Source: an uncultured Acidimicrobiia bacterium (GTDB taxonomy: Bacteria > Actinomycetota > Acidimicrobiia > Spongiisociales > UBA5794). From it: 64,000 nt of DNA. This document shows, piece by piece, positions 9,285 to 34,701 of this stretch. The stretch covers positions 359,325-423,324 of the forward strand of contig CAVPHV010000017.1 of NCBI GenBank assembly GCA_963704825.1, read 5' to 3'. The notes beneath the pieces are model-generated. The model was given only the letters and a program-made list of their open reading frames with translations, had not been told where the DNA came from and made no database searches. How positions within the stretch are numbered: the stretch's first letter is position 1; every line of letters starts with the position of its first letter. A program made the translations under genes and the position numbers.

Positions 9285-9794
9285 TCAGGCGGACTCTTCC
9301 GCCGCGTTCTCATAGCGGTCGAGTGCCGCGACGAACATCAGGAACAGGATCAGTGAGCCGAGGGTGAGCGCAATCGCAGGCACCCGAACCTGGAAGGCGT
9401 TCAGCCCTTCAACATCGGAGGGCCGCAGCCCGCGCGGGGCGTAGACCACGAACAGGGCGCTGCCGATGACCAGCCAACCAAACGTGGCGGCGCCGGTGAC
9501 GAGGAAGGCGAGGCGGGCGCCCAGGTTGGTGTAGAGCAGTAGGTAGCCGCTGCCGATGAACGCGATGATCGAGGTCACGGTGATGAGTACCCCTCGGGTC
9601 GCAACCGAGAAGGCCGTTACCCGGCCGGTGTCGGGATCGACCTGCTTGAAGATGGCGTCGTAGATGTCCCCGAACAGGCCCCGCACCGGCGGAATGAACG
9701 AAAGGATGGCGACGATGATGGCAAAGACGCCAAGCCACTCGAGGGCAGTCAGCCCTGCTTCATCACTATGGAATCGCCGGCGCAGGTTGCTCAC
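9285..9794 (-). CDS. Small integral membrane protein (169 aa, about 4 TM), last gene of the bc-complex operon.
   Basis: Its ATG overlaps the stop of the upstream cytochrome c gene (ATGA). The N-terminal GLTALEWLG is superficially Flp/TadE-prepilin-like (G-x-T-A-x-E-[YF]), probably coincidental. Four hydrophobic helices. Confidence 0.5.
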   Translation of the reverse strand: MSNLRRRFHSDEAGLTALEWLGVFAIIVAILSFIPPVRGLFGDIYDAIFKQVDPDTGRVTAFSVATRGVLITVTSIIAFIGSGYLLLYTNLGARLAFLVTGAATFGWLVIGSALFVVYAPRGLRPSDVEGLNAFQVRVPAIALTLGSLILFLMFVAALDRYENAAEESA

Positions 9795-11464
9795 ATCGAC
9801 CTTTCATACTGGACGATGAGTCGGATGTCTTCCTCAGACAGGATCTGCCCAAATGCGGGCATCCAGCCATTGCCGATCCCGTTGACGCCGTAGTTCCTGG
9901 CCAGCTCGGAACCCTCGATGATGAACTTGACCTGGTCGTCCGCATTCGGGAACTGGCTGACGGAGGCACCACCGACAAGCGATGGCCCCCAGGCCCCGCT
10001 GCCGGCTTCCTGCTCGAAGGCAACCCCGGCGCTGTAGCCGGCGGTGTGACAGCGGGCGCAGTAGCCGTTGAACAGACCGACGGCCCGCTCGCTGTCGGCC
10101 ACGCTGAGCCCGGTGTTGGCAGCCACCTCGTCGAAGTCGACCGCCCACAGTTGCTCTGCCTCGGCGTCACGTAGGAAGTTGAGGCCCTCGACTGCAGTGT
10201 TCAGGAAGACCTCTTGGCGCTCGGTCACCACGCCAAGGGTGAGATGTGCGGTGCTGAGGTCATTCATCCAAGCGTCGAGCGAGTCGATGTCGGCAATGGC
10301 CACTCCCGCAGCGTCGGTCATCGTGAAAGCCTTGCTCGGGTCGAGCATGAGGTCGTACAGGTGTGGATACAAGCCGACGTTGGGCACGATCGTCACCTCA
10401 TACGTGATGTTCCCGTCGTCGTCCTCGACCGGGGACACCACCCGCACCACCACGGTGTCCGCGGTGATGGCGGCCAGCGAGTTCGGATCCCGCTCACCGT
10501 CCACGGACCCGGCGATGAGGCGTTCGGCTTCGTCGCTGATTCCGTCGCGGTCGGTGTCGAGCCCGGCCTGGTTGCAGGATGACCCGACCATGGCGGCGGA
10601 CTCATCGGTGCAGGTCCCGTCGCCGGCCAGGATGAAAGCGATGTTGGTCGGTGTGGCGCCTGCCTGCTCCAGTGTCTCGAACTTTGCCGGGGCGTCATTC
10701 AAGTCGGCGATGACTGCTTGTTCGGCGGCAATACGGGCGGCGACTGCCTCGGCGCCGCCGGCGATGCGGGCCAGGGCGGCGTCCACCGTCGGTTGGATCT
10801 TGGCGAGGGCATCGCCCTGGGAGATTTGGAACGACTCGATGAAGGCCATGACCTGGTCGACTTCCTGGGTGCTCATGGCGCCGCCGCCTTCGAGACCGTT
10901 GGCCGGCATCGGGGTGCCGGCGCGCCCGTAGACGACCCAGAACTCGACCTCTTCTTCGCTATAGCGGTAGAAGACATCGTTGAGCGAGGGAACGGCCCAC
11001 GAGGTCTCCAACCCGCTGCGTTCCTCCGTGTAGGCCGCGCCGCCACCGCCCCCGTCGGCGCCGTGGCAGTTGGTGCACACGAAGTTGGTGTACCACCTGT
11101 GGCCCTCTTCGATGTAGAGCTCGCTTTGGGCCTCCGCCGCCTCAGCCTGGCGGTCTGACTCGATGATGTAGTAGACCGGGATGAGGAGAGCAAGAACGCC
11201 GGCTGCAACTACGGCCGACGTCAGGATCTTGGTTAGCCGTCTGTTCTCCAGCTCATCGTCGGAGAGGTACGGCTGAAGGTTGGGCGGGGTTTCGTCGGCC
11301 TTCTTCTTGCCGACCCGCCTGCTGTTGATGATGAGGTAGCCCACCCAGATCAGGAAGGCGCCGATGACCACGATGAGCACAAACGCGCCGAGCCCGACGT
11401 TGGCAGGACCGGCCGGTGTGCTGTCGGTCTCCGCCGTCGCGAGGATGATCGATGCCGCCGTCAC
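9791..11464 (-). CDS. Membrane-anchored dihaem cytochrome c (about 557 aa) with a roughly 300-aa insert between the two haem domains.
   Basis: Two CxxCH motifs (CTNCHGADG and CARCHTAGYS). N-terminal TM VGLGAFVLIVVIGAFLIWVGYLII. The insert contains DTDRDGISDEAE (DxDxDG Ca-binding-like). Start assigned to GTG 11464, overlapping the Rieske stop (GTGA); the 620-aa ORF start at 11653 lies deep inside the Rieske gene. Confidence 0.75.
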   Translation of the reverse strand: MTAASIILATAETDSTPAGPANVGLGAFVLIVVIGAFLIWVGYLIINSRRVGKKKADETPPNLQPYLSDDELENRRLTKILTSAVVAAGVLALLIPVYYIIESDRQAEAAEAQSELYIEEGHRWYTNFVCTNCHGADGGGGGAAYTEERSGLETSWAVPSLNDVFYRYSEEEVEFWVVYGRAGTPMPANGLEGGGAMSTQEVDQVMAFIESFQISQGDALAKIQPTVDAALARIAGGAEAVAARIAAEQAVIADLNDAPAKFETLEQAGATPTNIAFILAGDGTCTDESAAMVGSSCNQAGLDTDRDGISDEAERLIAGSVDGERDPNSLAAITADTVVVRVVSPVEDDDGNITYEVTIVPNVGLYPHLYDLMLDPSKAFTMTDAAGVAIADIDSLDAWMNDLSTAHLTLGVVTERQEVFLNTAVEGLNFLRDAEAEQLWAVDFDEVAANTGLSVADSERAVGLFNGYCARCHTAGYSAGVAFEQEAGSGAWGPSLVGGASVSQFPNADDQVKFIIEGSELARNYGVNGIGNGWMPAFGQILSEEDIRLIVQYERSM

Positions 11465-12360
11465 ACGCACGATGGTCCCTGCGGATAGGCAATGGTCTTG
11501 ATGGTGGCCCGGGAGGTCTCGAGGACCTGGCCCGTCTGAACGACGAGGTCGCCGTTGTCGTTGATCTCGACGGCGAAGCGGTCCATGTTGCGCGGCGCCG
11601 GTCCATCCACGTACTCGCCGTGGAAGTTGTACTTGGAGCCGTGACAGGGGCATTCAAAACCCTGCGACGACAGACACTCGGGGACCCGGCAGCCGAGGTG
11701 GACACAGCGCTGCCAGAGTGCCATCAGGCCCGGCTCGCTGCCGTCGGTGGCGACCACGGGAAGACCAGCGAATGAGCTGGCATCCTGGACATTGGAGTCG
11801 AACGGAACGATCCACGATTGGGCCGCGGCCACGAAGACCGGCTGGACGGAGCCGTCGGCTTGGATCATCTGGAGCTGCAGCTCGGTGAAGTTGCCTGCGT
11901 TGATTGGTGAGCCAAAGCCACCCTTCAGCTTCGGCCACAGGAAGGCCAGGAAGCTCAGCGATAGTCCTCCGAGGAAGGCACCGACGAACAGACCGAACAA
12001 TGCTCGGTTCAGGAACTTGCGGCGGGTGACGCCGTACTCGGCGGACGTGATCGGGATCCTCTCCAGTGCCGGATCTGGCGGCGGGGCCGCCGGCCCAGTA
12101 GCCGTCTCAGACTCGGCCGTTGTGGCGGTGTCGTCTTCAGCGGTTGCCGTCAACGTGGCAACCGCGGTTCCGCCTCCGTCGGCAGCAGACGCCTGTCGTC
12201 GGCGGTCGGAGCGAACCGCACGCTTGTCGAGCTTGCCGGTTGCGGCCGAGGTGATGGGTTCGGCGGACGGGCCGCGGCGCCATGCCACAGTGAACACCGC
12301 GAGGGCCGCCAGCCCTGCGGCGGCGACAATGCCAATGACGAAGATGGTGGTTGCGCTCAT
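11461..12360 (-). CDS. Rieske [2Fe-2S] iron-sulfur subunit of a cytochrome bc-type complex (Tat signal).
   Basis: CVHLGCRV...CPCHGSKY Rieske boxes. Twin-arginine RRKFLNRALFGLFVG. Start taken at the internal ATG 12360 (MSATTIFVIG...), which overlaps the upstream stop (ATGA). Confidence 0.85.
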   Translation of the reverse strand: MSATTIFVIGIVAAAGLAALAVFTVAWRRGPSAEPITSAATGKLDKRAVRSDRRRQASAADGGGTAVATLTATAEDDTATTAESETATGPAAPPPDPALERIPITSAEYGVTRRKFLNRALFGLFVGAFLGGLSLSFLAFLWPKLKGGFGSPINAGNFTELQLQMIQADGSVQPVFVAAAQSWIVPFDSNVQDASSFAGLPVVATDGSEPGLMALWQRCVHLGCRVPECLSSQGFECPCHGSKYNFHGEYVDGPAPRNMDRFAVEINDNGDLVVQTGQVLETSRATIKTIAYPQGPSCV

Positions 12361-13577
12361 CAGAAATCGAAGAAGACGCCGTCGACCCAGGGGAACGTGA
12401 AGTTGAATCCCGGTCCTCGGAAGAACGACCCGTAGATGGTCAGCACTGCGGCTGCGAACAGGAAGAAGCTGAAGATCATGATGGCCAGCTTTCGGTCGGA
12501 CGGCCGCACCGATGGGTTGCGGTCGACGTAGGGAATCATGGCGAGCCCAATGGCACCGAAGGTCGGGACGATGATCCCGGCGACCTGAGGGTCGAAGTAA
12601 GAGAGCAGTTCTTGGAGTCCGAGGAAGTACCACGGCGCCTTGGATGGGTTGGGCTGTTCGTTGAAGTTGGCGAACTCGAGTAACGGGGCGTCAACAAACA
12701 CCGAGAAGACGAACAATGCCGCCAGCACCACCATGAGAGCGACAAACTCGATGGCGAGCAGATGCGGCCAGACGCTCACCTTGTCATGCGGTTCGGACTT
12801 GACCTGTTGGATCGCCCCGGCTTTGACGACGGTCAGCAAACGTTGGGTGCGGACGCCCTCTGGAATCGCCTGTGCGGCGGCAGGTGCGGCGGCAGCCGCC
12901 GCACCACCGGCGGCGGGGACGGCCGCGGGTGGCGGGGCAGGTGCGCCGCCTGCCATCGTGGGAACGGCGGTGCCGTCCTTCCTCGCTCTGGCCACCATCG
13001 CCCGTTGCAGGAGAGGTACCGGTACTCCGTAGGTTGCGGACTCGGCATCGAGGTCGCGCACCGGCCCGGTGGGTGCTGCCAATGGAGCGGGGGCGGCTGC
13101 GGCGGGTTGAGCAGCGGGCGGCGCTTCGGCCACGGCCGCCTCTCCTGCGGGCGTTGCACCCATGAGTTCAGCCATGACCTCATCGACCGAGCGACCTTCC
13201 CTCTTGGCCCGCGCCTCGGCGGATCGTCGGACGAGGTGTTCGGGGAGACCCGGCCCGCCGCCGGTCGGTGCCGCGGCGGCAGGTGCAGCCGGTTCGGGGG
13301 CGGCGGCCGGTGGAGCAGCCCCGGTCAGCTCGGCCATCACTTCCTCAACGGAGCGGCCCTCCTTCTTGGCGCGAGCCTCGGCGGTCCGGCGGAGGAGGGC
13401 TTCGGGGATCTGTGCGGCCTCGCCACTTGCGGCGGCAGGTGCAGCAGGTTCGGGTGCGGCGGGCGGTGGAGCGGCTTCACCCTTCATCTCTGCCAGCACT
13501 TCGTCGACGCTCCGCCCCTCGGCCTTGGCACGGGCCTCGGCGGATCGCCTCAGAATGCTTTCGGGTATCTCTGCCAC
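12360..13577 (-). CDS. Cytochrome b6f subunit-IV-like / cytochrome b C-terminal-domain protein with a long N-terminal Ala/Pro-rich extension carrying 3.5 copies of a roughly 25-aa motif.
   Basis: C-terminal about 140 aa have 3 TM helices and the P(E)WY motif (APWYFLGLQELL). N-terminal repeats IPESILRRSAEARAKAEGRSVDEVLAEMKG / IPEALLRRTAEARAKKEGRSVEEVMAELTG / LPEHLVRRSAEARAKREGRSVDEVMAELMG are separated by AP-rich linkers. Confidence 0.75.
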   Translation of the reverse strand: MAEIPESILRRSAEARAKAEGRSVDEVLAEMKGEAAPPPAAPEPAAPAAASGEAAQIPEALLRRTAEARAKKEGRSVEEVMAELTGAAPPAAAPEPAAPAAAAPTGGGPGLPEHLVRRSAEARAKREGRSVDEVMAELMGATPAGEAAVAEAPPAAQPAAAAPAPLAAPTGPVRDLDAESATYGVPVPLLQRAMVARARKDGTAVPTMAGGAPAPPPAAVPAAGGAAAAAAPAAAQAIPEGVRTQRLLTVVKAGAIQQVKSEPHDKVSVWPHLLAIEFVALMVVLAALFVFSVFVDAPLLEFANFNEQPNPSKAPWYFLGLQELLSYFDPQVAGIIVPTFGAIGLAMIPYVDRNPSVRPSDRKLAIMIFSFFLFAAAVLTIYGSFFRGPGFNFTFPWVDGVFFDF

Positions 13578-13586
13578 GCGGTCTCC

Positions 13587-14369
13587 TTAGAGCGGACCCG
13601 AGATGCCGCCGTCTTTGCGCACTCGCCAGAAGTGCACGGCCATGAACACCACGATCACGAACGGGAAGAACAAGACGTGGAGGACGTACCACCGCAGCAG
13701 CGTGTCCGGCGTGATCTGGACGCCGCCGATCAACGCAAAGGACACTTGATCTCCCAACACCGGCGCATAGGCCCCCATGTTGGTGCCGACGGTCACCGCC
13801 CATACAGCCAATTGGTCCCACGGCAGCAGGTAGCCGGTGAACGAGAGGAGCAGGGTGAGGAGAAGGAGGATGATGCCGACCACCCAGTTGAATTCGCGGG
13901 GCGGCTTGTAGGCGCCGTGGTAGAAGACCCGAGCCATGTGGAGGAACACGGTCAGCACCATCAGGTGGGCACCCCATCGGTGCATGTTGCGTACCAACTG
14001 ACCAAAGGCCACGTCGGTCGAAAGCGCCTGGATGTCCTGGAAGGCGGCCGGTGACGTCGGCCGGTAGTAGAACATCAGGAAGATGCCGGTGATCGTGAGC
14101 AGGATGAACAGGAAGAACGAGAGTCCGCCGAGACAGAGGGTGTAGGAGAGCCGGACGCCGTGGCGCTTCACCTTCACCGGGTGGAGGTGGTAGAGCACGT
14201 TGTTCATGATCACATAGGAGCGGTTGCGGGGGCTGTCCGAGTAGCCAGCGCGCAGCGGTGAGCCGGGGCGGAAGATGCTCGACCACACCTGGCTGGATTG
14301 GATGCTCTCACCGACTTGGACCAGGCGCTCTTTCAGCCCGACCTTGCCGTCTCCGTTCCCGTTCGCCAC
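13587..14369 (-). CDS. Cytochrome b6-type (short, 260 aa) cytochrome b N-terminal domain protein.
   Basis: Four TM helices with bis-haem His pairs (MHRWGAHLMVLTVFLHM and RWYVLHVLFFPFVIVVFMAVHFWRVRKDGGISGP), typical of PetB/QcrB (Bacillus-type). Confidence 0.85.
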   Translation of the reverse strand: MANGNGDGKVGLKERLVQVGESIQSSQVWSSIFRPGSPLRAGYSDSPRNRSYVIMNNVLYHLHPVKVKRHGVRLSYTLCLGGLSFFLFILLTITGIFLMFYYRPTSPAAFQDIQALSTDVAFGQLVRNMHRWGAHLMVLTVFLHMARVFYHGAYKPPREFNWVVGIILLLLTLLLSFTGYLLPWDQLAVWAVTVGTNMGAYAPVLGDQVSFALIGGVQITPDTLLRWYVLHVLFFPFVIVVFMAVHFWRVRKDGGISGPL

Positions 14370-14433
14370 CCGACCTCCTCAAAGGCGTCGATAGTCTCAC
14401 CCACGGCAAGCGCCGGTCAAAATCGACCGTCGC

Positions 14434-14880
14434 TCACCAACGTACTCCGTATGCATACCCGTTCTTGAAGTCGCGAGCTCCTGTGTCGTACTCCCACGGC
14501 GCCAGACCGTGCTCATCTGCTTCCGCCGACAGCGAGCCGGCGAATTTGCCGAGCGAGATCACGCCGGTGGGGCAGCGGTCGATGCAGAGTGCACATCTGG
14601 TGCACTCATCCTCGTCGACCACGAAAAACCCCTTGTTCTCGGCATTTGACCCGGGGTCATCAACGTTGACCCCCTCGGCGATGGCGTCAACCGACAAGTA
14701 GTGGATGCACTTCCAGGGACAGATGTCGACACATCCCTCACACAGAATGCACTCGGCCTGGTTGATGTGAAGGAACTGCTTCGGCTTGACTGCTGCGATC
14801 AGGTACGCCCCGTCGACGGCGGCGAGTTGATAGTCGTCGCGCATCGGCGGGGTTTCGAACCAGACGTCGCTCTTGGCCAT
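14434..14880 (-). CDS. 2x[4Fe-4S] ferredoxin-like protein encoded inside the bc-complex operon.
   Basis: Two CxxCxxCxxxCP motifs (CILCEGCVDICP and CTRCALCIDRCP). Start at internal ATG 14880 (MAKSDVWF...). There is a 5-nt gap to the upstream gene. Confidence 0.75.
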   Translation of the reverse strand: MAKSDVWFETPPMRDDYQLAAVDGAYLIAAVKPKQFLHINQAECILCEGCVDICPWKCIHYLSVDAIAEGVNVDDPGSNAENKGFFVVDEDECTRCALCIDRCPTGVISLGKFAGSLSAEADEHGLAPWEYDTGARDFKNGYAYGVRW

Positions 14881-14885
14881 CTTCG

Positions 14886-15404
14886 CTACCTCTCGACCTT
14901 GGTCATGGGCCGACCATACGTCGAGACCGGTTGCGGCGGCGGACCGGATGCGATCTTCTTCTGCTGGTCCTGCCACTTGATCATCACGAAGGCGATGGCG
15001 CCGGTGATGGCGACGGAGTAGCCGGCCACGATCATGTCCTTGATGACTGCGTAGCTGATGGAAACGTCGTTGTTGAGCACAAGCACAGGGGGAATCGTGA
15101 GGAAGTTCTTCTGGGGCGTCCACTCCCATACCGCCTGAGTGAGCGTGAGCCATTGGTTGGGGATGACGCCGTAGAGGATGACCATCAGGCCGGTGAAGAG
15201 TGCGGCACCGAGCGAGGCGCGGGCCCAGGTCATCTTCCGCTTGTAGAGGAAGGCGAGTGTGGCGCTCGCCATGGCGAGGAGCACGCCGCCCAGGGCGACG
15301 AGTTGACCGAACAGTACGAAGCCCCACCCACGGGGGATTGCGGGGTAGATCTCCCGGCCGAGGTCGTCGAACTCGTTGAGACCGGTGAAGTGCGCAATGA
15401 GCAC
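14886..15404 (-). CDS. Integral membrane protein (172 aa, about 4 TM), first gene of the bc-complex operon; GTG start.
   Basis: Hydrophobic helices (WGFVLFGQLVALGGVLLAMASATLAF..., LGAALFTGLMVILYGVI...). No recognisable family. Confidence 0.5.
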   Translation of the reverse strand: MLIAHFTGLNEFDDLGREIYPAIPRGWGFVLFGQLVALGGVLLAMASATLAFLYKRKMTWARASLGAALFTGLMVILYGVIPNQWLTLTQAVWEWTPQKNFLTIPPVLVLNNDVSISYAVIKDMIVAGYSVAITGAIAFVMIKWQDQQKKIASGPPPQPVSTYGRPMTKVER

Positions 15405-15630
15405 TCCGATGACCAGCGTGACCAGGCCAACGAAGATGCCGGCGATGCCTGCCCTGAAGTAGTTTCGATGCTCCAGTTCGCCCTCCTGGTCCGTGCGGTG
15501 CGCACCTTACCGCGCCGAGATCGCCCCGGCCGCCGTCATTCTATGCAGACCGATGCCACTCTCGAAGCTCGACAGAGTTTTTCCCTTCCTGTCTGATAGC
15601 TAGGCTGCGCCCCGCCCGACGGGACGACCA

Positions 15631-17607
15631 ATGGAGGACGCGCGAGCGGTGGCCGCAGAGACGAAGACCGACGCTTCCGAGCCCGTACAGTCTGTGGCGG
15701 TATCTGGGTACTCCGGAGCAGCCCGCGCCCACATCTTTGTAGCGCTCGGCTCGCTCTTTGCCGGCGTCATGCTTGCCCTGGTTGCCGTGACGCAACTGGT
15801 CCTTCCCGATGTGTTCTCCGGCGTCGGCATGCTGAGCTACGGCAGGGTGCTTCCCGCTGCGACCAACGTTCTCGTCTACGGCTGGCTGACGGTTGGATTG
15901 ATCGGCGCCGCCTACTACATCGTTTCCGAGGTCGCCGGAGTCAAACTCCAGTTCGAGCCGCTCGCCCGAGTGGGCGCTCTGTTGCTCGCCATCGGTGTCA
16001 TCGCCGGCGCCGGCGGGATCGCACTCGGTTGGAGTGAGGGACGCACCTACGTCGAGATGCCGCTGTGGGCGGACTTCTTCGTTCTCCTCGGCTTGCTGAT
16101 CGCGGTGCGGGTCATCACCGCAACCATCTCCGATCGCACCAACCGCGAGATGGGTCCGGCCCTGTGGTTCCTCGGCGCCGCACCACTGTGGCTGTTGTTT
16201 GCCTTCGTGGTCGGCAACATCCCCGGCCTGGTCGGGATGAACAGCGTCATCCAGACCGCCTTCTACCGCGGCGCCCTTGCCGGGCTCTGGTTGTCGGTAG
16301 CCGGCTTCGGGATCGTGTACTACCTCATACCGAAGGTGACCGGCCGCGGACCGGCCAAGCCGACCAAGCTCGCGGTCATGGGTTTCTGGTCGCTCGGGTT
16401 CGTCTGGGCGTTTGCCGGAGCCGCCAACCTCACGTACACCCCGGCCCCCGGCTGGCTGCAGACCATCGGTGTCGTGTTCTCGATCGCGCTCTTCCTTCCG
16501 CTCGCCATGCTGTTCACAGATCTGGTTGGTCTGATGCGTGGCCGCTGGGGTCGGGCACGCGACCGGATGACGATGCGCTTCATCGGGGCGGGAGCAATCC
16601 TGTTGCTGGTGACGGCGGTCATCAACCTGCTCCAGGCGCTGCGGGCATCGAACGCCGTTGTCGGCTACACCATCTGGGGTGCCGCCTTCGAGTACGCCAC
16701 GTTCTACGGGGCATTCACGCTGTGGCTGGCCGCCTTCATCTACGCCGCGGCCGGTGATCTGCTCGGAGGTGTCTTCAAGCCTTCGGTGGCGAGAGGGCAC
16801 TACCGCCTCACGACGTTCTCGATCACCGTCATCCTGGCGACGACGCTGATCGGAGGCCTGCAAACCGGGTTCTTGTGGATCGCCGACGCCAACAGTCCCG
16901 AAAGTACCGTGGCTTACGGGCCAGGGTGGAAGGCCGTCGTTGAATCGCTTCAGCCGCACTACTGGATCTTGTTCCTGGCGATGGTTCTGTTTGTCTTCGC
17001 TCAGGTCCGCTTTGTCGCCGGCGGGGTCGCCGCGGCCATCAACGCGAGACCGGCGGAGCCGGAGACGGCCGACCACGACGACCTCGAAGGACCCGACCTC
17101 GCGGATGCCGGCTGGATGGCGACCAACGGAGTGTCCGCCCGCCACCTGTGGCTCGGGTCGACTGGTCTCCTTGTGCTGGCGGCCCTGCTGGTGGTGCTGC
17201 TGCCCTCGCTCGAGGCTTCTCACGTGGACGGGACCATCCTCTCGGACCGCTCCCGCAACTACCGCTCCGATGACTTCTTGGAGCGCGGCCGCGGGTTGTA
17301 CCTGGCCGAGGGGTGCTGGTACTGCCACACCCAGGACGTCCGGCCCATCGTCACGGACGTGGAATTGGGTGCGGTCAGCCAGCCCGGCGATTACGCAAAT
17401 GAGGTTCCGGCCTTGCTCGGCACGGCTCGGGTGGGACCCGACCTGATGCACGCCGCGACCCGGGAGGAAGCCGGTTCGAGCGCGTTCCTTTTTGATCACT
17501 TGACCGACCCGCGGGTCGACCGCCCCTGGTCGATCATGCCGAGTTATGACTACCTGTCGGAGAACGACCGGTTGGCCCTCGCCGCCTACATCACGAGTCT
17601 GGACTGA
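15631..17607 (+). CDS. cbb3-type oxidase subunit I (CcoN)-like 12-TM domain lacking all canonical haem/CuB histidine ligands, fused to a CcoO/FixO-like monohaem cytochrome c domain.
   Basis: Block-wise similarity to CcoN as I remember it: [34 protein letters not shown] vs [53 protein letters not shown] vs [33 protein letters not shown] vs GPHHLHYT. The C-terminus [22 protein letters not shown]...VGPDL...IMPSYDYL matches the CcoO haem-c site. Confidence 0.75.
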   Translation: [658 protein letters not shown]

Positions 17608-17610
17608 GCG

Positions 17611-18483
17611 ATGGAAGATCAGATCCAAAGAGTTGCCGAACAAACCGGGGTCCCTAGTGGCCTGTTACAACGCGCCGCCGCCGCCCGCGCCACCGCGGCA
17701 GGCACCTCGACCGAGGTCATCGTGGCGAAGTGGGCCGGCGAGGACGCGGCAGCTCCGGCAGCAGCCACGGCCGCTCCCGCTCCGGCCGCGCCGCCGGTCG
17801 CTCCGGCCCCGGCGCAGCCGCCGGCAGACAGTTCGACGCCGGCAGTTGAGGTGCTTGAACCGGTCGCCGCGGCTCCCAGCACGGTCGGAGCGGATGCGTC
17901 GGAACCTGAACCGGAGCCCGAGCCTGCAGCCGCAGGCGGGTTCCCCAAGTGGCTGGCCGCCGCCTTCATTGTGATCCCTGCCATTGCGCTGTTCTATGCC
18001 CTGCTCTTCCCGAATGGTCCTGACTGCGGTTCGGCCGGTCAGTTGGCCGTCGATCCCGGCACCGGTGTCGCCGTGAACTGTGACGGCAGCGCGTTCGGGT
18101 CCGAGGAGTTCAGCTACTTCGGCACCGGCGAGGTCATCTACGCCGAACGGTGTGCCGCGTGCCATGGTGCCAACGGCGCCGGTGGCGCCAACTTTCCCGC
18201 TCTGGCCGGTGGGGCCGTGGTTGCGACCTTTGGCTCCTGCACCGATCACGTTGCGTGGGTTGGGTTGGGAACGGCCGGATTCCAGGAAGCCGGCATCGCC
18301 ACCTACGGCGACAGTGAGAAACCCGTGGGCGGCGCCGGGGTTCCCATGCCGGGCTTTGAGGGTGTCATCTCCGAGCAAGATCTGATTGCGGTCGCCCTCT
18401 ACGAGCGAGTCGCCTTCGGCGGCGAGGATCTTGCGGTTGCTGAGGAACTCTGCGTCGGCCAAGAGGCCGTGGCTTCTCCGTAG
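17611..18483 (+). CDS. Membrane-anchored monohaem cytochrome c (CcoP-like) with an N-terminal motif related to the subunit-IV repeats.
   Basis: CAACHGANGAGG (CxxCH) with flanking FPALAGG as in CcoP. Central TM FPKWLAAAFIVIPAIALFYALLF. The N-terminal LLQRAAAARATAAGTSTEVIVAKWAGE resembles LLRRSAEARAKAEGRSVDEVLAEMKGE. ATG is 4 nt after the upstream stop. Confidence 0.7.
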   Translation: MEDQIQRVAEQTGVPSGLLQRAAAARATAAGTSTEVIVAKWAGEDAAAPAAATAAPAPAAPPVAPAPAQPPADSSTPAVEVLEPVAAAPSTVGADASEPEPEPEPAAAGGFPKWLAAAFIVIPAIALFYALLFPNGPDCGSAGQLAVDPGTGVAVNCDGSAFGSEEFSYFGTGEVIYAERCAACHGANGAGGANFPALAGGAVVATFGSCTDHVAWVGLGTAGFQEAGIATYGDSEKPVGGAGVPMPGFEGVISEQDLIAVALYERVAFGGEDLAVAEELCVGQEAVASP

Positions 18484-18511
18484 TCTCGGCGCGCTCGGTA
18501 CGCTCCCTGCC

Positions 18512-19774
18512 ATGACTTCACCGGATGTACTGGTTGTCGGCGGCGGCCCCGCCGGGGCCTCTGCCGCCTATTGGATGGCGCAGCGTGGGGTGTCCGTCCT
18601 GGTCGTCGAGAAGAAGACCTACCCGCGTGAGAAGACCTGCGGTGACGGGCTGACCCCGCGGGCGGTCAAGCAACTGATCGACATGGGGTTCGATTTCGAC
18701 ATTCCCGAACTCCATCGGATCGACGGGCTGCGCGCCTACGCCGGTGACCTGATGCTGGAGCTGCCCTGGCCGGAGCGCACCACCTATCCATCGTGGGGCG
18801 CCGTCATCCGCCGTGCCGACCTCGATGGGCGGGTCGCCATGCTCGCCGAAAAGCAGGGGGCGGTGATTCAGCAGGGGACCGAGGCCACGGCCATTGTCGA
18901 CGACGGCAGACTGGTCGCGGTCGACCTGAAGGTCGGCAACGGCTCGGGAGAGTCAGAGATCACCCGGGTCACGCCCCGGCTGGTTGTCATCGCCGATGGG
19001 TCGCTGTCGCGTTTCGGGCGAAAGCTCGGCACGGCGCGACGTCGCGACTACCCATACGGTCTTGCCGTGCGCGCCTACTACTCGAGCCCCAACTCGGGCG
19101 ATCGATTCCTCGAGAGCCAGCTCAACATCACCGACCGCAACGGCCGTCACATGCCGGGGTACGGCTGGATCTTCCCGCTCGGCGACGGCACCATCAACAT
19201 CGGCGCCGGAGCCCTTTCCACCTTCAAGGGGTGGAAAGACCTCAATACGACCGAACTCCTCGAGGCTTATGTATCCGGCCTGCCATCGCGTTGGGAGGTC
19301 ACGGCGGCGTCGCTGCTCACCGAGCCGACCGGGGGCAAGCTGCCGATGGCCTTCTCGATCGGACCCAAGGTCGGTCCGAATTGGGTTGTGGTCGGAGACG
19401 CGTCAGGGGCGGTCAATCCCTTCAACGGCGAAGGAATCGACTACGCCTACGAGACGGGACGCCTGGCCGCCGGCTATGTCGCCGACGCTCTGGCGACGGG
19501 CGACAGTGGACCCCTCTACGGCTACGCCCAAGCGATCGAGCAGGAATACGGCGATTACCACAAGGTCGCCAGGATCTTTGCGCTGGCGATCGGGAACCCG
19601 GCCGTGATCAAGACCCTCACCCAGGTGGGAATGCGTTCCCGTCCACTGATGGAGTGGGTACTGAAGGTCATGGCCAACCTGCTCGAACCGGAGGAGCGCG
19701 GGATGACCGAGCGGGTCTACGGAGCCATTGAACGGGTCGTCAAGATCGCCCCCGAGCCCAACCGATCTCGGTAA
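18512..19774 (+). CDS. FAD-dependent geranylgeranyl reductase-family oxidoreductase (candidate menaquinone/isoprenoid side-chain reductase, MenJ-like).
   Basis: Start at internal ATG 18512 (MTSPDVLVVGGGPAGASAAYWMAQRGVSVLVVEKK: GxGxxG FAD fold). ...TCGDGL... and GDASGAVNPFNGEGI are typical of the GGR family. Confidence 0.8.
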   Translation: MTSPDVLVVGGGPAGASAAYWMAQRGVSVLVVEKKTYPREKTCGDGLTPRAVKQLIDMGFDFDIPELHRIDGLRAYAGDLMLELPWPERTTYPSWGAVIRRADLDGRVAMLAEKQGAVIQQGTEATAIVDDGRLVAVDLKVGNGSGESEITRVTPRLVVIADGSLSRFGRKLGTARRRDYPYGLAVRAYYSSPNSGDRFLESQLNITDRNGRHMPGYGWIFPLGDGTINIGAGALSTFKGWKDLNTTELLEAYVSGLPSRWEVTAASLLTEPTGGKLPMAFSIGPKVGPNWVVVGDASGAVNPFNGEGIDYAYETGRLAAGYVADALATGDSGPLYGYAQAIEQEYGDYHKVARIFALAIGNPAVIKTLTQVGMRSRPLMEWVLKVMANLLEPEERGMTERVYGAIERVVKIAPEPNRSR

Positions 19775-19803: not shown

Positions 19804-22800
19804 GTGACGACGTCGGGGGATTTCAGCGAAGTCGATCTTGACCAGTTGGTCGAGCAGATCGTCGCTGCCGATGAGGTGGCGAGTGATGTGCTGGCGGCGT
19901 TCGCCCGGGCCTATCTGAGCCGAGTCCCGCAGGAGCGTCTCGCCGCCTGGCCGCCGGACGAGCTTGGGGCTCACGTTCGCCACCTCTTTGAATTCGCCGC
20001 CGACCGCCGCGGCGACGACGTCGAGGTTCGTGTCTTCAACCCAACCGTCGAGACCGCCGGCTATGCGCTGAGCGGAGCCGTCGTCGAGGTGGCGGCGCCG
20101 GACATGGCGTTCCTGGTGGACTCGATCACCAACGAGATCCAGTCGCACGGTTTCAACGTCGAACGTGTCGTCCATCCCGTGGTCGGCACCGGACGCGACG
20201 CCACCGGGCGCTTGGTCGAGATCAGGCCGGCCCGCACCTCGATGTTGCGCGAGTCGATCCAGCACTACGAGCTGAGCCGGCCGATCGGGGAGCACGACGC
20301 TGCGGAATTGGAGACAGGCGTGCGGCGGGTGTTGCTCGACGTCGCTCGCGCCGTTGACGACTTCGAGCCGATGCAGGGCGCCATCTACCGCATGATCAAG
20401 GTGACTCGGGACGGTGCGGCCCGCTATTCGAAAGAGGAGATCGATGAGGATGTTGCCTTTCTCGAATGGCTGCTCGACCTCAACTTCGTGTTCCTGGGCT
20501 ACCGCGAGTATCGGATCGCACCGGGGGTGACCGAACCCGAGTTGTCGGTGGTTCCGGGTTCCGGTCTCGGCATCCTGCGCGACGACACCGAGTCGGGTTT
20601 TGCATCGCCGGTTCCGATGTCTGAGGTACGGCCCTCGCTGCGGGCCCGGTACGAGAGCGGCGATCTGCTGGTGATCAGCAAGACGAACTCGCCATCCCGG
20701 GTCCACCGCAATGCGAAGATGGACTACGTCGGCGTCCGGCACGTTGGACCCGACGGGACCGTGATCGGCGAAGCGCGGATGGTCGGCCTGTTCACCTCGA
20801 AGGCGTATATGGCGGCGGCCGATTCGATCCCGCTGCTGCACCGCAAGCTCACCCAGATCATCGAGGCGGAGGACTTGATCGAGGGCTCGCACTCCTACAA
20901 GGAGGTCGTCGGGCTCTTCAACAGCTTCCCCAAGGACGAATTGTTCACCACACCGACGCCCGACATTCGGCGCAGCATTGTCGGTCTGCTCCAACTTCAA
21001 GAGCAGCGCCACGTCCGGCTCTTTGTACGGCGCGATCTGCTGCGGCGCAGCGCGTCGGTGCTGGTGGTGATGCCACGAGACAGGTTCAACGCCGCCCTGC
21101 GTCACCGGCTCCAGGCCCTGTTGCTTGAGCGGTTCGGCGGGACCTCCATCGACTACCGATTGTCGCTCGGCGACGCCGATACGGCCCGGCTGCACTTCAC
21201 GGTATGGGTTGCCGGAGGAGAGGTTCCCGACGTGTCAATCGAGGTTCTCGAGGCAGAGGTCGTTGCCGAGGCACAGACCTGGGAGGAGCGCCTCGCCGGA
21301 GAGGTCGATGCCCGCTACGGCTCCGAACGCGGTCGGGCGTTGCTCGACGAGTGGGCCGGCAAGTTTCCCGATCACTACCGGGCATCCATCCCGTTGTCGA
21401 TTGCAGCCGGTGACCTCGGCAAACTCGACGAACTGGTAGCCGGCTCAGGGAGGGCGGTTGTCGGACTTCAGAACGAACCTGGGCCGGGCGAGCAGCTCAC
21501 CCGGCTCGCCGTGTATCGCTCAGACGGCAAGTTGGAACTCTCTGCCATCATGCCGACCCTCGAGGCGCTCGGGCTTCGGGTGGTCGAAGAAGTGCCCACG
21601 CGGCTCCGCGGCGGGGACGGCGGGCTCTTCATCCACGACTTCGGGGTGCTCGACCTCGATGGAGCCATGCTCGACCTCGACGATGTCGCCGACCGGGTGG
21701 CCGACACTGTGGTTGCGGTTCTCGCGGGTCAAGCCGAATCCGATTCTCTCAACCGGTTGATCATCAGCGCCGGACTCGACCATCGCCAAGTGACGATCCT
21801 GCGGGCCTATCGCACCTACTGGCGGCGGGTCAGTCCAGGATTCACGGTTGAGTACATCAACGACGCCTTTGCCGCCCATCCCGAGATCGCCGCGGATCTG
21901 GTCGAGTTGTTCGCCACTCGCTTCGACCCCGGGCTCGGCGAGGCAGAAGAGGCTCCTACCCTGGCTCGGATCCTTTTCGAGTTGGACCAGGTCTCCAGCC
22001 TCGACGAGGACCGCATTCTGCGCGGCTTTCTGGGACTCGTGCTCGCCACCAAGCGGACCAATGTGTACCTGCCCGGCGCCGACAGCCTCAGCTTCAAGTT
22101 CCGTTCGAGCGAGGTGCCGGCCATGCCGGAGCCGGCTCCGCTGTTCGAGATCTTCGTTTACGCCGGCGAGGTCGAAGGCATCCACCTGCGGGGCGGACGG
22201 GTGGCTCGTGGTGGTATCCGCTGGTCGACCCGCAAAGAGGACTACCGCACAGAGGTGCTCGGGCTGATGAAGGCGCAGATGACCAAGAACGCCGTCATCG
22301 TTCCCACCGGATCAAAGGGCGGCTTTGTGCTGCGTCGGCCGCCGGCGGATCCGGCCGAACTGCGCGACGCGGTGCTCGCCGGCTACATGATTTTCATCCG
22401 CGGGTTGCTGGACGTCACCGACAACCTGGTGGAAGGGACGGCGGTGCATCCCGCCGGAGTTCGAATCCATGATGACGGCGATCCTTACTTGGTGGTTGCG
22501 GCCGACAAGGGCACCGCCACGTTCTCCGACACCGCTAACGAGATCGCCGCGGCCTACGACTTCTGGCTGGGCGATGCGTTCGCGTCCGGCGGTTCGGCCG
22601 GATACGACCACAAGGCCCTCGGCATCACGGCTCGGGGCGCATGGGAGTCGGTCAAGTGGCACTTCCGCGAACTGGGTATCGACATCATGCACGAGCCCTT
22701 CACCGTGGTCGGCATCGGCGACATGTCGGGTGATGTCTTTGGAAACGGGATGCTGTTGTCACCACACATCCGGCTCGTCGCCGCCTTCGATCACCGCCAC

Positions 22801-24588
22801 ATCTTCATCGACCCCGATCCCGATCCGGCGACGTCCTTCGCCGAACGCCGCCGGATGTTCGCTCTGCAAAGGTCGAGTTGGGAGGACTACGACGACTCGC
22901 TGATCTCGGCCGGGGGCGGGGTGTTCTCTCGCACCGCAAAACGGATCGACCTGACCGATGAGATACGGCTGGCTCTCGGCACCAACGCCCACCAGCTGAC
23001 ACCCGACGAGCTGATCCAGGCCATTCTGAGAGCACCGATTGACTTGCTGTGGAACGGCGGCATCGGAACGTACGTCAAGGCAGCCGCCGAGACCAGCGAG
23101 CAGGTCGGAGACCGCGTCAACGATGCCTTGCGCGTCAACGGCTTCGAACTGCGTTGCAGGGTGATCGGAGAAGGCGGCAACCTCGGGCTGACTCAGCCGG
23201 GTCGCATCGAGTTCGCTCGCGGCGGCGGTCGGGTCAACACCGACTTCATCGACAACTCCGGCGGGGTCCATTGTTCGGACCGCGAGGTGAATCTGAAGAT
23301 CCTGCTGGGTTTGGCCGAGGTGCGCGGCGAGCTGGATCGCGGGGGACGCGACGCCCTCGTCACCGACGTCGTTGACGATGTGGTCTCCGCCATCGTCTAC
23401 GACAATTTCCTCCAGGCGCAGATCATGGCCCAGGAGGTCCACGGCTCGGCTCAATCCCTCGAGGCGTACGAGGATCTGATGTCGCTGTTGGAGAGCGAGG
23501 GAGCACTCGATCGTCGCATTGAGCGGTTGCCCACCACCGAAGAGATGAGCGAGCGGGCTCGCCTCGGCGAAGGAATGCCCGCCCCGGAACTTGCCGTGCT
23601 GCTCGCCTATTCGAAGCGCAGTTTGCGCGACTGGCTGCTCGACTCGGAGTTGCCGGATTGGGACGACTTCAGCGATGAAGCGCGTGGGTACTTCCCTGCC
23701 GAGGTTGTGCGCCGATTTGGTGATCTGATCCCCGAGCATCCACTGCGTCGTGAGCTGGTGGCGACCATCGTGGCCAACCGGGTCGTCAACTCGGAAGGGG
23801 CGACGTTCGTGACCCGGCTCATGGCCGAGACCGGGGCAGCCCCCGAGCAGGTGGTGCGGGCATATCACATCGCCAGGGGCGTCACCGACGCCCCCAATCG
23901 CTGGCGAGCCGTCGAGTCGCTGGTCGGCCGGGTCCCTGCCGAGGTCGAGCGTGATTTGTTGGAGGGAATCGACGGATTGGTCGAGAACATTGCTCGGTGG
24001 TACCTGACTAATCCGTCTGCCGAGTTCATGAGCGAGGTGACGGCGACCGCCAAACCGGCATTCGACGAGATGGCAGAGATCATTGCCGAGATCGGGCCGG
24101 CCCAGTGGCGGGCCGATCGTGACGCCGCAGTAGTCGTCTGGGCCGAGCAAGGCGTTCCCGCCGAGGTCGCCATCCGCCACGTCTACCAAGAGGAGTTGAT
24201 CCACGCTCCCGATGTGATCGTGGTGGCGCAGCGCACCGGGCGTTCGGTGCGCGACGTCGCCCAACTGTTCCTGCTCATCGGTCCGGTGTTCGAGATCGAC
24301 TGGCTCGAGGAGCAGGTCGCCGCGTTGCCCGCTGCCGGCCGCTGGCACCGCCGGGCCATCAAGACCGTCGAAGACGATCTTGTCCTGCTGCGGCGCCAAC
24401 TCGCCGAGCACATCCTGGCGGTCTCGGACGACGCCGTTCCACACGCCGCGCTCGACCACTACCTCGTTGAGCACACCCACGAACTCGGCCGCCTCACACG
24501 CTTCATGCGCTCTCTCGCCATCGATGGCGTGGACGACGTGGCCTCGGTGATCGTCGCCATCCGCCAAATCCGATCCCTGGCCACCTGA
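19804..24588 (+). CDS. gdh: NAD-specific glutamate dehydrogenase, large (about 180 kDa) bacterial type (Bac_GDH, PF05088).
   Basis: 1594 aa. Catalytic core motifs PTGSKGGFVL, VVAADKGTATFSD, GGSAGYDHKALGITARGAWESV, GDMSGDVFGNGML and NSGGVHCSDREVNLKIL. Confidence 0.9.
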   Translation: MTTSGDFSEVDLDQLVEQIVAADEVASDVLAAFARAYLSRVPQERLAAWPPDELGAHVRHLFEFAADRRGDDVEVRVFNPTVETAGYALSGAVVEVAAPDMAFLVDSITNEIQSHGFNVERVVHPVVGTGRDATGRLVEIRPARTSMLRESIQHYELSRPIGEHDAAELETGVRRVLLDVARAVDDFEPMQGAIYRMIKVTRDGAARYSKEEIDEDVAFLEWLLDLNFVFLGYREYRIAPGVTEPELSVVPGSGLGILRDDTESGFASPVPMSEVRPSLRARYESGDLLVISKTNSPSRVHRNAKMDYVGVRHVGPDGTVIGEARMVGLFTSKAYMAAADSIPLLHRKLTQIIEAEDLIEGSHSYKEVVGLFNSFPKDELFTTPTPDIRRSIVGLLQLQEQRHVRLFVRRDLLRRSASVLVVMPRDRFNAALRHRLQALLLERFGGTSIDYRLSLGDADTARLHFTVWVAGGEVPDVSIEVLEAEVVAEAQTWEERLAGEVDARYGSERGRALLDEWAGKFPDHYRASIPLSIAAGDLGKLDELVAGSGRAVVGLQNEPGPGEQLTRLAVYRSDGKLELSAIMPTLEALGLRVVEEVPTRLRGGDGGLFIHDFGVLDLDGAMLDLDDVADRVADTVVAVLAGQAESDSLNRLIISAGLDHRQVTILRAYRTYWRRVSPGFTVEYINDAFAAHPEIAADLVELFATRFDPGLGEAEEAPTLARILFELDQVSSLDEDRILRGFLGLVLATKRTNVYLPGADSLSFKFRSSEVPAMPEPAPLFEIFVYAGEVEGIHLRGGRVARGGIRWSTRKEDYRTEVLGLMKAQMTKNAVIVPTGSKGGFVLRRPPADPAELRDAVLAGYMIFIRGLLDVTDNLVEGTAVHPAGVRIHDDGDPYLVVAADKGTATFSDTANEIAAAYDFWLGDAFASGGSAGYDHKALGITARGAWESVKWHFRELGIDIMHEPFTVVGIGDMSGDVFGNGMLLSPHIRLVAAFDHRHIFIDPDPDPATSFAERRRMFALQRSSWEDYDDSLISAGGGVFSRTAKRIDLTDEIRLALGTNAHQLTPDELIQAILRAPIDLLWNGGIGTYVKAAAETSEQVGDRVNDALRVNGFELRCRVIGEGGNLGLTQPGRIEFARGGGRVNTDFIDNSGGVHCSDREVNLKILLGLAEVRGELDRGGRDALVTDVVDDVVSAIVYDNFLQAQIMAQEVHGSAQSLEAYEDLMSLLESEGALDRRIERLPTTEEMSERARLGEGMPAPELAVLLAYSKRSLRDWLLDSELPDWDDFSDEARGYFPAEVVRRFGDLIPEHPLRRELVATIVANRVVNSEGATFVTRLMAETGAAPEQVVRAYHIARGVTDAPNRWRAVESLVGRVPAEVERDLLEGIDGLVENIARWYLTNPSAEFMSEVTATAKPAFDEMAEIIAEIGPAQWRADRDAAVVVWAEQGVPAEVAIRHVYQEELIHAPDVIVVAQRTGRSVRDVAQLFLLIGPVFEIDWLEEQVAALPAAGRWHRRAIKTVEDDLVLLRRQLAEHILAVSDDAVPHAALDHYLVEHTHELGRLTRFMRSLAIDGVDDVASVIVAIRQIRSLAT

Positions 24589-24606
24589 GCACCCGGCCTC
24601 GCTAGC

Positions 24607-24635
24607 TTGGACACCATCACCACGACCCCTAATCT
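24607..24635 (+). promoter_or_regulatory. Candidate sigma-70-type promoter of the nuoA-N operon: -35 TTGGAC, 17-nt spacer, -10 TAATCT; AGAGG SD 11 nt upstream of the nuoA GTG.
   Basis: Read directly in the 71-nt gdh-nuoA intergenic region. Sequence-only prediction. Confidence 0.3.
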
Positions 24636-24659
24636 CCCGACCCAGAGGTTCTCCACCAC

Positions 24660-25091
24660 GTGACGCTTGCTGCCTACCTACCAATCGCGCTCATGTTCCT
24701 GCTGGGAACAGGATTCGCCGCGGTCATGATGTGGTTCTCCTGGCTGATTGCGCCGAACAACCCGACTCCGGAGAAGCTGGCCCCGTACGAGTGTGGGATC
24801 GTGCCGCTCCAAGAGCCGGCAGAACGCTTCCCGGTCAAGTTCTATCTGGTTGCGATGTTGTTTGTGATCTTCGACGTCGAGATCATCTTCCTCTTTGCCT
24901 GGGCGGTCAGATTCGACCAGTTCGGGTGGCCCGGCGTCCTCGCCGTCGGCATCTTCATCGCCCTCCTGGCCGAGACCCTGGTCTATGCCTGGAAGCGTGG
25001 CGCGCTCGACTGGAACGTGGCGCGCCGCGAACGCTACCGCCGCGAAGTTGTTCGGGGTGACACGAAGTCCGTGGTGGAGGACGCCGCCTGA
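24660..25091 (+). CDS. nuoA: NADH-quinone oxidoreductase subunit A (with a roughly 25-aa C-terminal extension), GTG start.
   Basis: [10 protein letters not shown]...[22 protein letters not shown] signature. First gene of the 14-gene operon. Confidence 0.9.
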
Positions 25092-25561
25092 TGGCAGGAG
25101 CATCACAGCCGTCCGGGTTCCTTCTCGGCACTCTGGAGAAGGGCGTGAATTGGGCTCGTACCCGGTCGATGTGGGGCGCCACGTTTGGTCTGGCGTGCTG
25201 CGCCATCGAGATGATGGGGACCGGCGCGTCGCACAACGACCTCGGGCGTTTTGGCATGGAGGTGTGGCGCGCCTCGCCGCGTCAGGCAGATCTCATGGTG
25301 GTGGCAGGACGCGTCTCCCAGAAGATGGCGCCGGTGTTGCGCCAGGTGTACGACCAGATGGCGGAGCCGAAGTGGGTCATCTCGATGGGGGCGTGTGCCT
25401 CGACCGGCGGGATGTTCAACAACTATGCAATCGTCCAAGGGGTCGACGAGGTCGTTCCCGTCGACATCTATGTGCCCGGGTGCCCGCCGGGACCGCAGTC
25501 GCTGATGCACGGCATCTTGACGCTGCACGAAAAAATCATGGCCGGCGAGATCGTTCGGTGA
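25091..25561 (+). CDS. nuoB: NADH-quinone oxidoreductase subunit B.
   Basis: [22 protein letters not shown] and VPGCPP are N2-cluster Cys motifs. Its ATG overlaps the nuoA TGA. Confidence 0.9.
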
Positions 25562-25571
25562 GTGGATTGCG

Positions 25572-26108
25572 ATGACTGACGACACCACCACGGAGCCGGC
25601 AGAGACCGCCGAAGACGCCGACGCCGTAGCTGAGGCCCTGATCGAGGACGCCGCGTTGAGCGCGCTCGACGCAGCCGAACTCGAGGTCGCCGCCGACGGG
25701 AAAACCGTCACCGCCCGGATCGACCGCGAAGGCTACGTGGCGTTGATGACCGCGGCCCGTGACGTGGGGTTCGACACCTTTGTAGATCTCTGTGCCGTCG
25801 ATTACTTCCGGCGCCAACCCCGGTTCGAGGTCGTCGTGATCGTGTTTGCGCTCGAGCAACGCCGCCGGTTGCTCGTGAAGGTCGGGGTTCCGGGCGGCGA
25901 GCCGAGCCTCGATTCACTGACGTCCCTGTGGCCGGGCGCCAACTTCTACGAGCGCGAGGCGTACGACCTCTTCGGCATCCACTTCTCCGGCCACCCAGAT
26001 CTGACCAGGATCCTGCTGCCCGACGATTGGGAGGGCCATCCGCTGCGCAAGGACTACGCGGTTGGATCGGTGCCCGTGCAGTTCAAGGGAGCGCACCAGA
26101 CGCCATGA
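25572..26108 (+). CDS. nuoC: NADH-quinone oxidoreductase subunit C (30-kDa subunit).
   Basis: ERE(A/V)YD(L/M)FGI motif ([20 protein letters not shown]). Confidence 0.85.
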
Positions 26109-32975: not shown

Positions 32976-32985
32976 GGGGATAGCG

Positions 32986-34699: not shown

Positions 34700-34701
34700 C
34701 C

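Follow-up and report, generated by a model that had tools for sequence, protein, structure and literature searches.

Enzyme homologues that have lost their activity can be kept as subunits of respiratory complexes, as with the core proteins of mitochondrial bc1, which derive from MPP, and the ActB subunit of Alternative Complex III (ACIII) carries a molybdopterin-like domain without a cofactor. The present analysis concerns a gene of comparable kind in a stretch of 64,000 nucleotides from an uncultured Acidimicrobiia bacterium (the window; contig CAVPHV010000017.1, positions 359,325 to 423,324 of the forward strand), where a fusion of the cbb3 oxidase subunits CcoN and CcoO that lacks the metal ligands of the oxidase is encoded back to back with a Rieske/cytochrome b6 (bc) operon. 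As in the core proteins and ActB, a protein next to or within a quinol:cytochrome c oxidoreductase has kept the fold of an enzyme and lost the cofactors needed for catalysis, but here the dead module is a heme-copper oxidase and its predicted membership of a complex comes from the genes.

Two sets of described systems are among the closest to this locus. Complex III-IV "superoperons" have been described in Acidobacteria (PMC8407424), and bc1-cbb3 supercomplexes have been solved (8smr, 6xkw and 9g83). The window resembles both in that Rieske/cytochrome b genes and genes of the heme-copper oxidase family lie side by side. It differs from them in that the oxidase partner is apparently dead and its unit is transcribed away from the bc unit instead of in the same direction, and physical association is predicted from gene linkage. 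The second is the APWY clade of split cytochrome b defined by Kao and Hunte in 2014 (PMC4122944), in which an Acidimicrobidae genome (Ilumatobacter) appears among the few actinobacteria with a split cytochrome b. The window likewise has separate cytochrome b6 and subunit IV genes with the APWY Qo motif; the text of that paper as examined deals with cytochrome b only and does not mention a ligand-less CcoNO as a partner. Neither a ligand-less CcoN nor its pairing with bc genes was found described in the open-access full-text literature, although such absence is not proof. The module is thus a variant of the known bc-cbb3 arrangement without a published description in the searchable literature.

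The fused gene (15631..17607, + strand) encodes 658 aa with Pfam matches to COX1 (PF00115, 123 bits) and FixO (PF02433, 72.2 versus 29.6 bits). The CcoN domain, approximately residues 30-470, has 12 transmembrane helices and is followed by a linker, a transmembrane anchor and the CcoO haem-c domain. Ligand positions were examined by alignment to solved cbb3 structures (E 1e-20) and in a 66-protein MAFFT alignment, using P. stutzeri numbering. Both haem b ligands are replaced in the window, H60 by Ala and H347 by Tyr, as is the haem b3 ligand H345, by Phe. The three CuB ligands H207, H257 and H258 are Ala, Ala and Asn, and the cross-linking Tyr of helix VII (Y251) is Trp in the window and W, F, Y, I or G across the family. 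An earlier note on this DNA had called the CcoN ligand-less, and the comparison with solved structures bears this out for all six His and for Y251. Live CcoN controls in the same MAFFT alignment retained every ligand and the Tyr. The six His were missing from every family member examined (40 proteins, 30 genome loci and 44 metagenome loci), and each of the 44 full-length metagenome copies combined the ligand-less CcoN with an intact CXXCH. With all six His and the cross-linking Tyr lost, the CcoN domain is predicted to hold no haem b, haem b3 or CuB, and hence would be incapable of O2 reduction. The residues found at the ligand positions vary freely (A, G, F, L, V, T, W, Y, Q, E and N), and the family alignments contain no conserved His, Cys, Met, Asp or Glu at or near any of them.

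The fold, in contrast to these ligands, has been kept. The heme-copper oxidase subunit I fold is supported by PF00115, by the match to cbb3 structures in the PDB and by Foldseek; an AlphaFold model of CcoNO reached a predicted template-modelling score (pTM) of 0.87 and superimposed on 8smr_E and 3mk7_A with a TM-score of 0.88 and a root-mean-square deviation of 2.5-3.4 A. In the transmembrane domain of CcoN nearly every invariant position is a Gly, Pro or Trp, and most of the family-invariant residues fall in the CcoO part. There the N-terminal transmembrane anchor, the CXXCH (CWYCH in the window) and the distal Met are all present; across the family the CXXCH is invariant and the Met of MPSY nearly so. 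The scores of the curated oxidase families are not reached: 117.7 versus 583 bits for TIGR00780 and 199.8 versus 1080 bits for PRK14485 on the CcoN side, and 65.6 versus an equivalog cut-off of 200.65 for TIGR00781 on the CcoO side. The protein thus resembles cbb3 oxidase in its 12-helix CcoN fold and in the anchor, CXXCH and Met ligand of CcoO, and live fused CcoNO proteins (P0044-P0062; PRK14485) in an identical fusion topology, but departs from cbb3 oxidase in the loss of the six His and the cross-linking Tyr, in the absence of a dihaem CcoP, and in scores that fall well short of the family cut-offs. In comparisons with relatives of 84-90% identity, the CcoN domain had a ratio of nonsynonymous to synonymous substitution rates (dN/dS) of 0.10-0.14 and the CcoO domain one of 0.08-0.09; a neighbouring glutamate dehydrogenase (GDH) gene gave 0.10-0.11 and cytochrome b6 0.04-0.06. 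More than 100 loci have an unbroken reading frame of approximately 650 codons. CcoNO is a conserved pseudo-oxidase, not a decaying gene.

The pairing of this gene with the bc operon was examined in both directions. In the forward search, a profile built from 22 family members found 80 loci in species-representative genomes, which were then searched by tblastn with the window proteins and checked for ligands. Ligand-less fusions were found in 30 Acidimicrobiia/Actinomycetota loci, the best matches being in metagenome-assembled genomes (MAGs) of Acidimicrobiia at no more than 44% identity. Wherever upstream sequence was available (28 loci) the bc operon lay divergent from CcoNO, with a gap below 500 bp in 24. 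In the reverse search, metagenomes were scanned with a profile of M1, the first protein of the bc operon, and those hits were counted in which the contig extends 1.5 kb or more upstream of M1; a divergent CcoNO was present in 51 of 51. The pairing holds down to 33% CcoNO identity. The earlier note had named a lack of conserved synteny beforehand as one finding that would refute its proposal, and in both directions synteny was conserved without exception. The fixed back-to-back pairing, together with the loss of the metal ligands, suggests that the ligand-less CcoNO is probably a retained partner of the bc complex and not an oxygen reductase.

The bc operon itself (9285..15476, - strand) is a tight array of seven genes, as the earlier note had it, and Pfam supports the assignment of five of them. 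In order of transcription they encode M1 (14886..15476), a membrane protein of approximately 196 aa with no significant Pfam or NCBIfam match; a 2x[4Fe-4S] ferredoxin-type subunit of 148 aa (14434..14880; Fer4 families); cytochrome b6 of 260 aa (13587..14369; PF00033, 164 bits); subunit IV of 405 aa (12360..13577; PF00032); a Rieske [2Fe-2S] protein of approximately 299 aa (11461..12360; PF00355), with CVHLGC and CPCHGS boxes in the translation; a membrane-anchored dihaem cytochrome c of approximately 557 aa (9791..11464); and M7 (9285..9794), a membrane protein of 169 aa that matches no Pfam or NCBIfam family and whose position is conserved across loci. The features of the APWY clade of split cytochrome b are all present: separate b6 and subunit IV genes, the four haem-b His, the Rieske CxH/CxxH pair, and APWY in subunit IV, which reads APWYF in nearly all loci. 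Cytochrome b6 carries, besides its four His ligands, a CLGG motif of the haem-ci type that recurs in nearly all Acidimicrobiia loci. In b6f complexes such a motif binds haem ci, and its Cys may hold haem ci covalently here as well. CLGG is absent from the aligned part of the cytochrome b genes linked to live oxidases in Acidobacteriota. In the dihaem cytochrome two class-I domains, each matched by a stretch of PF13442 and of PF00034 and with the haem motifs CTNCH and CARCH between them, flank an insert of approximately 250 aa, and no relative was found in the PDB at E 0.01 or better. The ferredoxin subunit was present in all 47 metagenome loci with downstream flank, and its co-encoding hints at a possible exchange of electrons on the cytoplasmic side.

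The remaining loci of the profile search belonged to Acidobacteriota, Ignavibacteria/Bacteroidota-type and Planctomycetota genomes and carried live CcoN and CcoO, usually as separate genes. In these, CcoN and CcoO are co-directional and lie downstream of Rieske/cytochrome b genes and a multihaem cytochrome; their bc genes have the APWY Qo motif of the window, and a 10-residue CcoO motif is common to their CcoO and to the ligand-less family. The acidobacterial clusters differ from the Acidimicrobiia module, which has the ferredoxin, M1, M7 and a long dihaem cytochrome c instead of the multihaem cytochrome. These comparisons are most simply read as loss of the oxidase chemistry, in the Acidimicrobiia, from an ancestral bc-cbb3 cluster. 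In two loci with live oxidases (L050 6199-11935 and L057 5043-11989) a single strand carries, in this order, Rieske, cytochrome b, a cytochrome c with 5 to 7 haems, CcoN and CcoO; the cytochrome b of L050 is a single open reading frame (ORF) of 438 aa.

Some variants of the ligand-less gene were also seen. In one subclade (L006, L012, L106, L111, L116-L118, L131, L156 and L161) a conserved His stands two residues after the lost H60 (RLRPAAIHF), with no partner His in helix X. An unfused form of the module occurs in L085 (336-3607) and L086, with a ligand-less CcoN of 468 aa (P0041), a FixO protein of 278 aa and a cytochrome c of 347 aa. L086 has a gene for a 210-aa protein divergent upstream, and L085 has Glrx-like and SAM_HAT genes as neighbors, as in the window. 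In a third arrangement (L087 1-7700; JGI 3300056869) a degenerate COX1-family gene, P0065, directly follows Alternative Complex III genes (ActD and a cytochrome c) and is itself followed by FixO and a cytochrome c; in the MAFFT alignment P0065 lacks the haem ligands and retains two of the three CuB His. Degenerate CcoN-CcoO-cytochrome c modules may thus pair with ACIII as well.

A second c-type cytochrome is encoded 3 nt downstream of CcoNO (17611..18483, + strand; 290 aa), and it is found directly downstream wherever the contig continues, in genome and metagenome loci alike. The earlier note had described it as a membrane-anchored monohaem protein similar to CcoP. Membrane anchoring and a single class-I haem are evident from its layout, in which an N-terminal cytoplasmic motif is followed by a linker rich in Ala and Pro, a single transmembrane helix and, at the C-terminus, a domain with CAACH. 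A likeness to CcoP in particular was not supported, and the protein is best called a generic class-I cytochrome c: it has one CXXCH rather than two, NCBIfam gave no match to TIGR00782 (CcoP), and the Pfam scores were borderline for PF13442 (27.9 bits, cut-off 27) and 26.5 bits for PF00034. Matches in the PDB were weak and non-specific, with CcoP, QcrC and other class-I cytochromes c equally weak.

The N-terminal motif of this cytochrome links it to the opposite unit. It is approximately 30 residues long, with a consensus near IPExLLRRSAEARAKAEGRSVDEVLAE, and occurs as four N-terminal copies in subunit IV (within 12360-13577, - strand) and as one copy in the cytochrome (17611-17740, + strand). 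The earlier note had remarked on this shared motif, and four BLASTP matches (E 4e-5 to 5e-4) confirmed it, the cytochrome copy matching each of the four subunit IV repeats. Such cross-hits recur in other loci, and the number of copies differs between loci (L006, L010-L012 and L016-L018). Apart from a weak match to VapB antitoxin, no Pfam family was found for the motif. In b6f complexes the N-terminus of subunit IV is on the n-side. Because of this, and because the haem domain of the cytochrome must be outside the membrane, both kinds of copy would by topology be cytoplasmic.

The region between the two units was given as 226 bp (15405-15630) in the earlier note, which assumed that M1 starts at GTG 15404. 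This length is probably too great. The conserved N-terminal transmembrane helix of M1 runs on in frame upstream of that GTG as far as CTG 15476, which sits 5 nt after a Shine-Dalgarno sequence, AGGAGG (15482-15487). Distant M1 homologues have an ATG or GTG start at the equivalent place; in the window and three close relatives only the conserved CTG is found there, and both this codon and the Shine-Dalgarno sequence are invariant in four relatives. The frame contains no ATG, GTG or TTG upstream of GTG 15404, and automatic gene callers shorten M1 to 172 aa. Given the in-frame conservation of the helix and the starts of the homologues, M1 probably starts at CTG 15476, and the spacer is most likely 154 bp (15477-15630).

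Within this spacer a promoter-like site for the bc operon was identified on the - strand (15538..15565), with a -35 sequence TCGAGA, a 16-nt spacer and a -10 sequence TAGAAT (15543-15538). It was the sole sigma-70-like match in 15350-15700, where 0.0 were expected. Its -10 box, ATTCTA or ATTGTA on the plus strand (TAGAAT or TACAAT on the minus strand), is present in 77 of 89 homologous spacers. On the other side, we infer a -10 box for the CcoNO promoter from the candidate TAGGCT (15601..15606, + strand), which lies inside the conserved GCTAGGCT. The more general TAG[AG][GC]T is found in 54 of the 89 spacers, and the 8-mers GCTAGGCT and GCTAGAGT in 21 and 22 of them, respectively. Both -10-like boxes are invariant in close relatives and lie 63-115 bp apart in the 21 spacers where both were found. 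The two conserved boxes support the prediction of back-to-back divergent promoters, from which transcription would start near 15531 (- strand) and near 15613 (+ strand).

Other candidates for control elements in this region were rejected. The 10-bp palindrome GGTGCGCACC that the earlier note had pointed out is indeed present (15497-15506, in what is probably the 5' leader of the bc operon). As an operator it was dismissed: perfect 10-bp palindromes are at chance frequency in the window (111, versus approximately 102 in shuffled sequences), and this one is broken in relatives of 84-89% identity. A gene for the Rex redox-sensing repressor (8611-9237, + strand; NCBIfam 299.7 bits) faces the last gene of the bc operon in convergent orientation and retains this position in most Acidimicrobiia loci. 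Control of the spacer by Rex was likewise rejected, since no canonical Rex operator was found in the window, its spacer included, and the 89 homologous spacers contain no more than shuffled sequences do. A riboswitch or structured leader was set aside for want of an Rfam match and with a leader fold z of +0.69. No operator was found in the divergent spacer.

Taken together, the two-way synteny, the shared N-terminal motif and the conserved -10-like boxes support a functional linkage of the two units, as the earlier note had proposed and as far as can be judged from sequence. The explanation that we favor, with a probability of roughly 55%, is that of a fossilized bc-cbb3 pairing, in which the CcoN shell would scaffold a working CcoO haem c that, with the monohaem cytochrome, lengthens the series of c haems in the bc complex or forms its end. 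The module would be class-wide in the Acidimicrobiia and would have arisen from an ancestral cluster of an APWY-type, split-cytochrome-b Rieske/cytochrome b complex and a cbb3 oxidase. In the Acidimicrobiia, CcoN and CcoO would have been fused and CcoN stripped of haem b, haem b3 and CuB, to be kept by purifying selection as a 12-helix scaffold bearing a functional CcoO-type haem c at the outer face of the membrane. CcoNO and the adjacent monohaem cytochrome would stay physically attached to the bc complex, with electrons passing from the Rieske protein to the dihaem cytochrome, the CcoO haem and the monohaem cytochrome, and from there to a distinct terminal acceptor whose genes lie elsewhere. 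Transcription of both units would run outward from back-to-back promoters in the spacer of approximately 154 bp. The physical association, the electron relay, the nature of the final acceptor and the co-regulation of the units are what we infer from the genes. That the whole constitutes an undescribed respiratory assembly, a ferredoxin-bearing b6-type Rieske/cytochrome b complex permanently joined to a cbb3 fossil whose empty CcoN would do no more than hold the CcoO haem and the monohaem cytochrome as the electron exit, is a more tentative proposal, to which we would give slightly less than even odds.

Several observations count against the favored explanation. No terminal oxidase is encoded within the window that could serve as the electron sink, and the bc operon already has its own dihaem cytochrome c, so that extra haems are not obviously needed. 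The proposed ancestry rests on gene neighborhood and on best-hit similarity at 26-31% identity. In seven of the 79 paired loci (four genome and three metagenome loci) the units are 1-8.7 kb apart, so a shared control region is not obligatory; where examined, the inserts are heterogeneous, unrelated ORFs and include no conserved extra component.

These separated loci are also an argument for regarding the two units as functionally independent, their divergent arrangement persisting merely by descent. Such persistence is improbable, in our view, given that adjacency was found in all 79 informative loci down to 33% identity whereas a nearby flavoprotein gene, described below, moves freely, that a motif is common to proteins of both units, and that the unfused module has the same neighbors. 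Even more clearly, the idea that the CcoN part is the remnant of a decaying pseudogene, which the loss of all catalytic ligands might suggest, is effectively refuted by the intact frame across those 100 and more loci, the low dN/dS and the confident fold prediction.

A more serious contender accepts the partnership and denies the electron relay: the ligand-less CcoN would be a purely structural, assembly or ion- or proton-conducting subunit of the bc complex, much as mitochondrial complex III has core proteins that descend from peptidases and are inactive, and the CcoO haem would have no part in through-electron transfer. The Gly, Pro and Trp residues that make up almost all of the invariant transmembrane positions would suit such a role, as would the retained cbb3 fold and the obligate synteny. 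We nevertheless consider it unlikely, because CcoO is the most constrained part of the protein (with an invariant CXXCH, a nearly invariant Met, many invariant neighboring residues and the lower dN/dS) and because a second c-type cytochrome is always co-encoded. It is also conceivable that CcoNO is still a redox enzyme or sensor, binding a cofactor through residues other than His or acting on a new substrate such as nitric oxide or a quinone. Heme-copper oxidase relatives with altered sites are known, and the strong purifying selection and the subclade with a His two residues after the H60 position could be read in this way. The free variation of the replacements, the lack of conserved His, Cys, Met, Asp or Glu at or near the ligand positions and the structural nature of the invariant transmembrane residues make a new active site a poorer prospect than a structural role. 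The fossilized pairing with a working CcoO haem accordingly remains the explanation that we favor.

NCBI and JGI give members of the family the name "cbb3-type cytochrome c oxidase subunit I/II". Without haem b, haem b3 and CuB, which the protein is predicted to lack, it cannot act as an oxidase of high affinity, so inferences about the oxygen niche of Acidimicrobiia that are drawn from cbb3 annotations may be wrong. MAG studies, PMC8357290 for example, credit Actinobacteriota bins with cbb3 oxidases, whose genes may or may not belong to the ligand-less family. If the assembly with a fossil oxidase is real, the "cbb3 oxidase" annotations across an abundant class would be false, and inferences of high-affinity microaerobic respiration would need revising. 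The module offers a clean case of a respiratory enzyme that has lost catalysis and been kept class-wide beside its former electron donor, with live counterparts in other phyla. It also gives studies of supercomplexes and pseudoenzymes something definite to work on in the bc complexes of the APWY clade, which have received little attention.

The third gene of the plus-strand unit lies 28 nt downstream of the cytochrome gene (18512..19774) and encodes a 420-aa FAD flavoprotein of the geranylgeranyl reductase (GGR) family. The ORFs and spacings of all three genes were confirmed by ORF coordinates and Pfam. The family assignment made in the earlier note is supported: Pfam finds FAD-binding and GGR domains, and the protein passes TIGR02032 with 225.7 bits (cut-off 158.8). 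Its nearest named equivalog is the menaquinone reductase MenJ (NF045655, 292.8 bits, below the cut-off of 700), and the best solved relative is an archaeal lipid reductase (PDB 3oz2, E 3e-22). The protein thus shares with the MenJ/GGR family a Rossmann FAD fold and the GGR catalytic domain, with MenJ as the best NCBIfam match, but it falls short of the MenJ equivalog and its gene is only loosely linked to the module. The tight linkage suggested by the 28-nt spacing did not extend to relatives, in which the gene was 0.1-9 kb away or absent within 10 kb. Many loci have it immediately downstream, and in several it is displaced by a further 0.7-1.3 kb. Three loci have it at a distance of 5-9 kb, one has no copy within 10 kb, and in one more it lies across the operon, on the opposite side.

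The G+C content of the window is approximately 65%, and its flanks carry a large GDH gene, nuoA-N, carboxylases and an ABC transporter. Downstream of the GGR gene on the same strand (19804-39653, +) are a 1594-aa large NAD-type GDH and then a run of ORFs at the position of the nuo (complex I) operon, the gaps from GGR to GDH and from GDH to the nuo-position ORFs being 29 and 71 nt. No terminator-like sites were found after the GGR or GDH genes, so the 3' end of the plus-strand unit is not defined, and the unit may read through into GDH and the nuo-position ORFs. In a relative that is 90% identical (L081), nuoA-E were called at this position after GDH.

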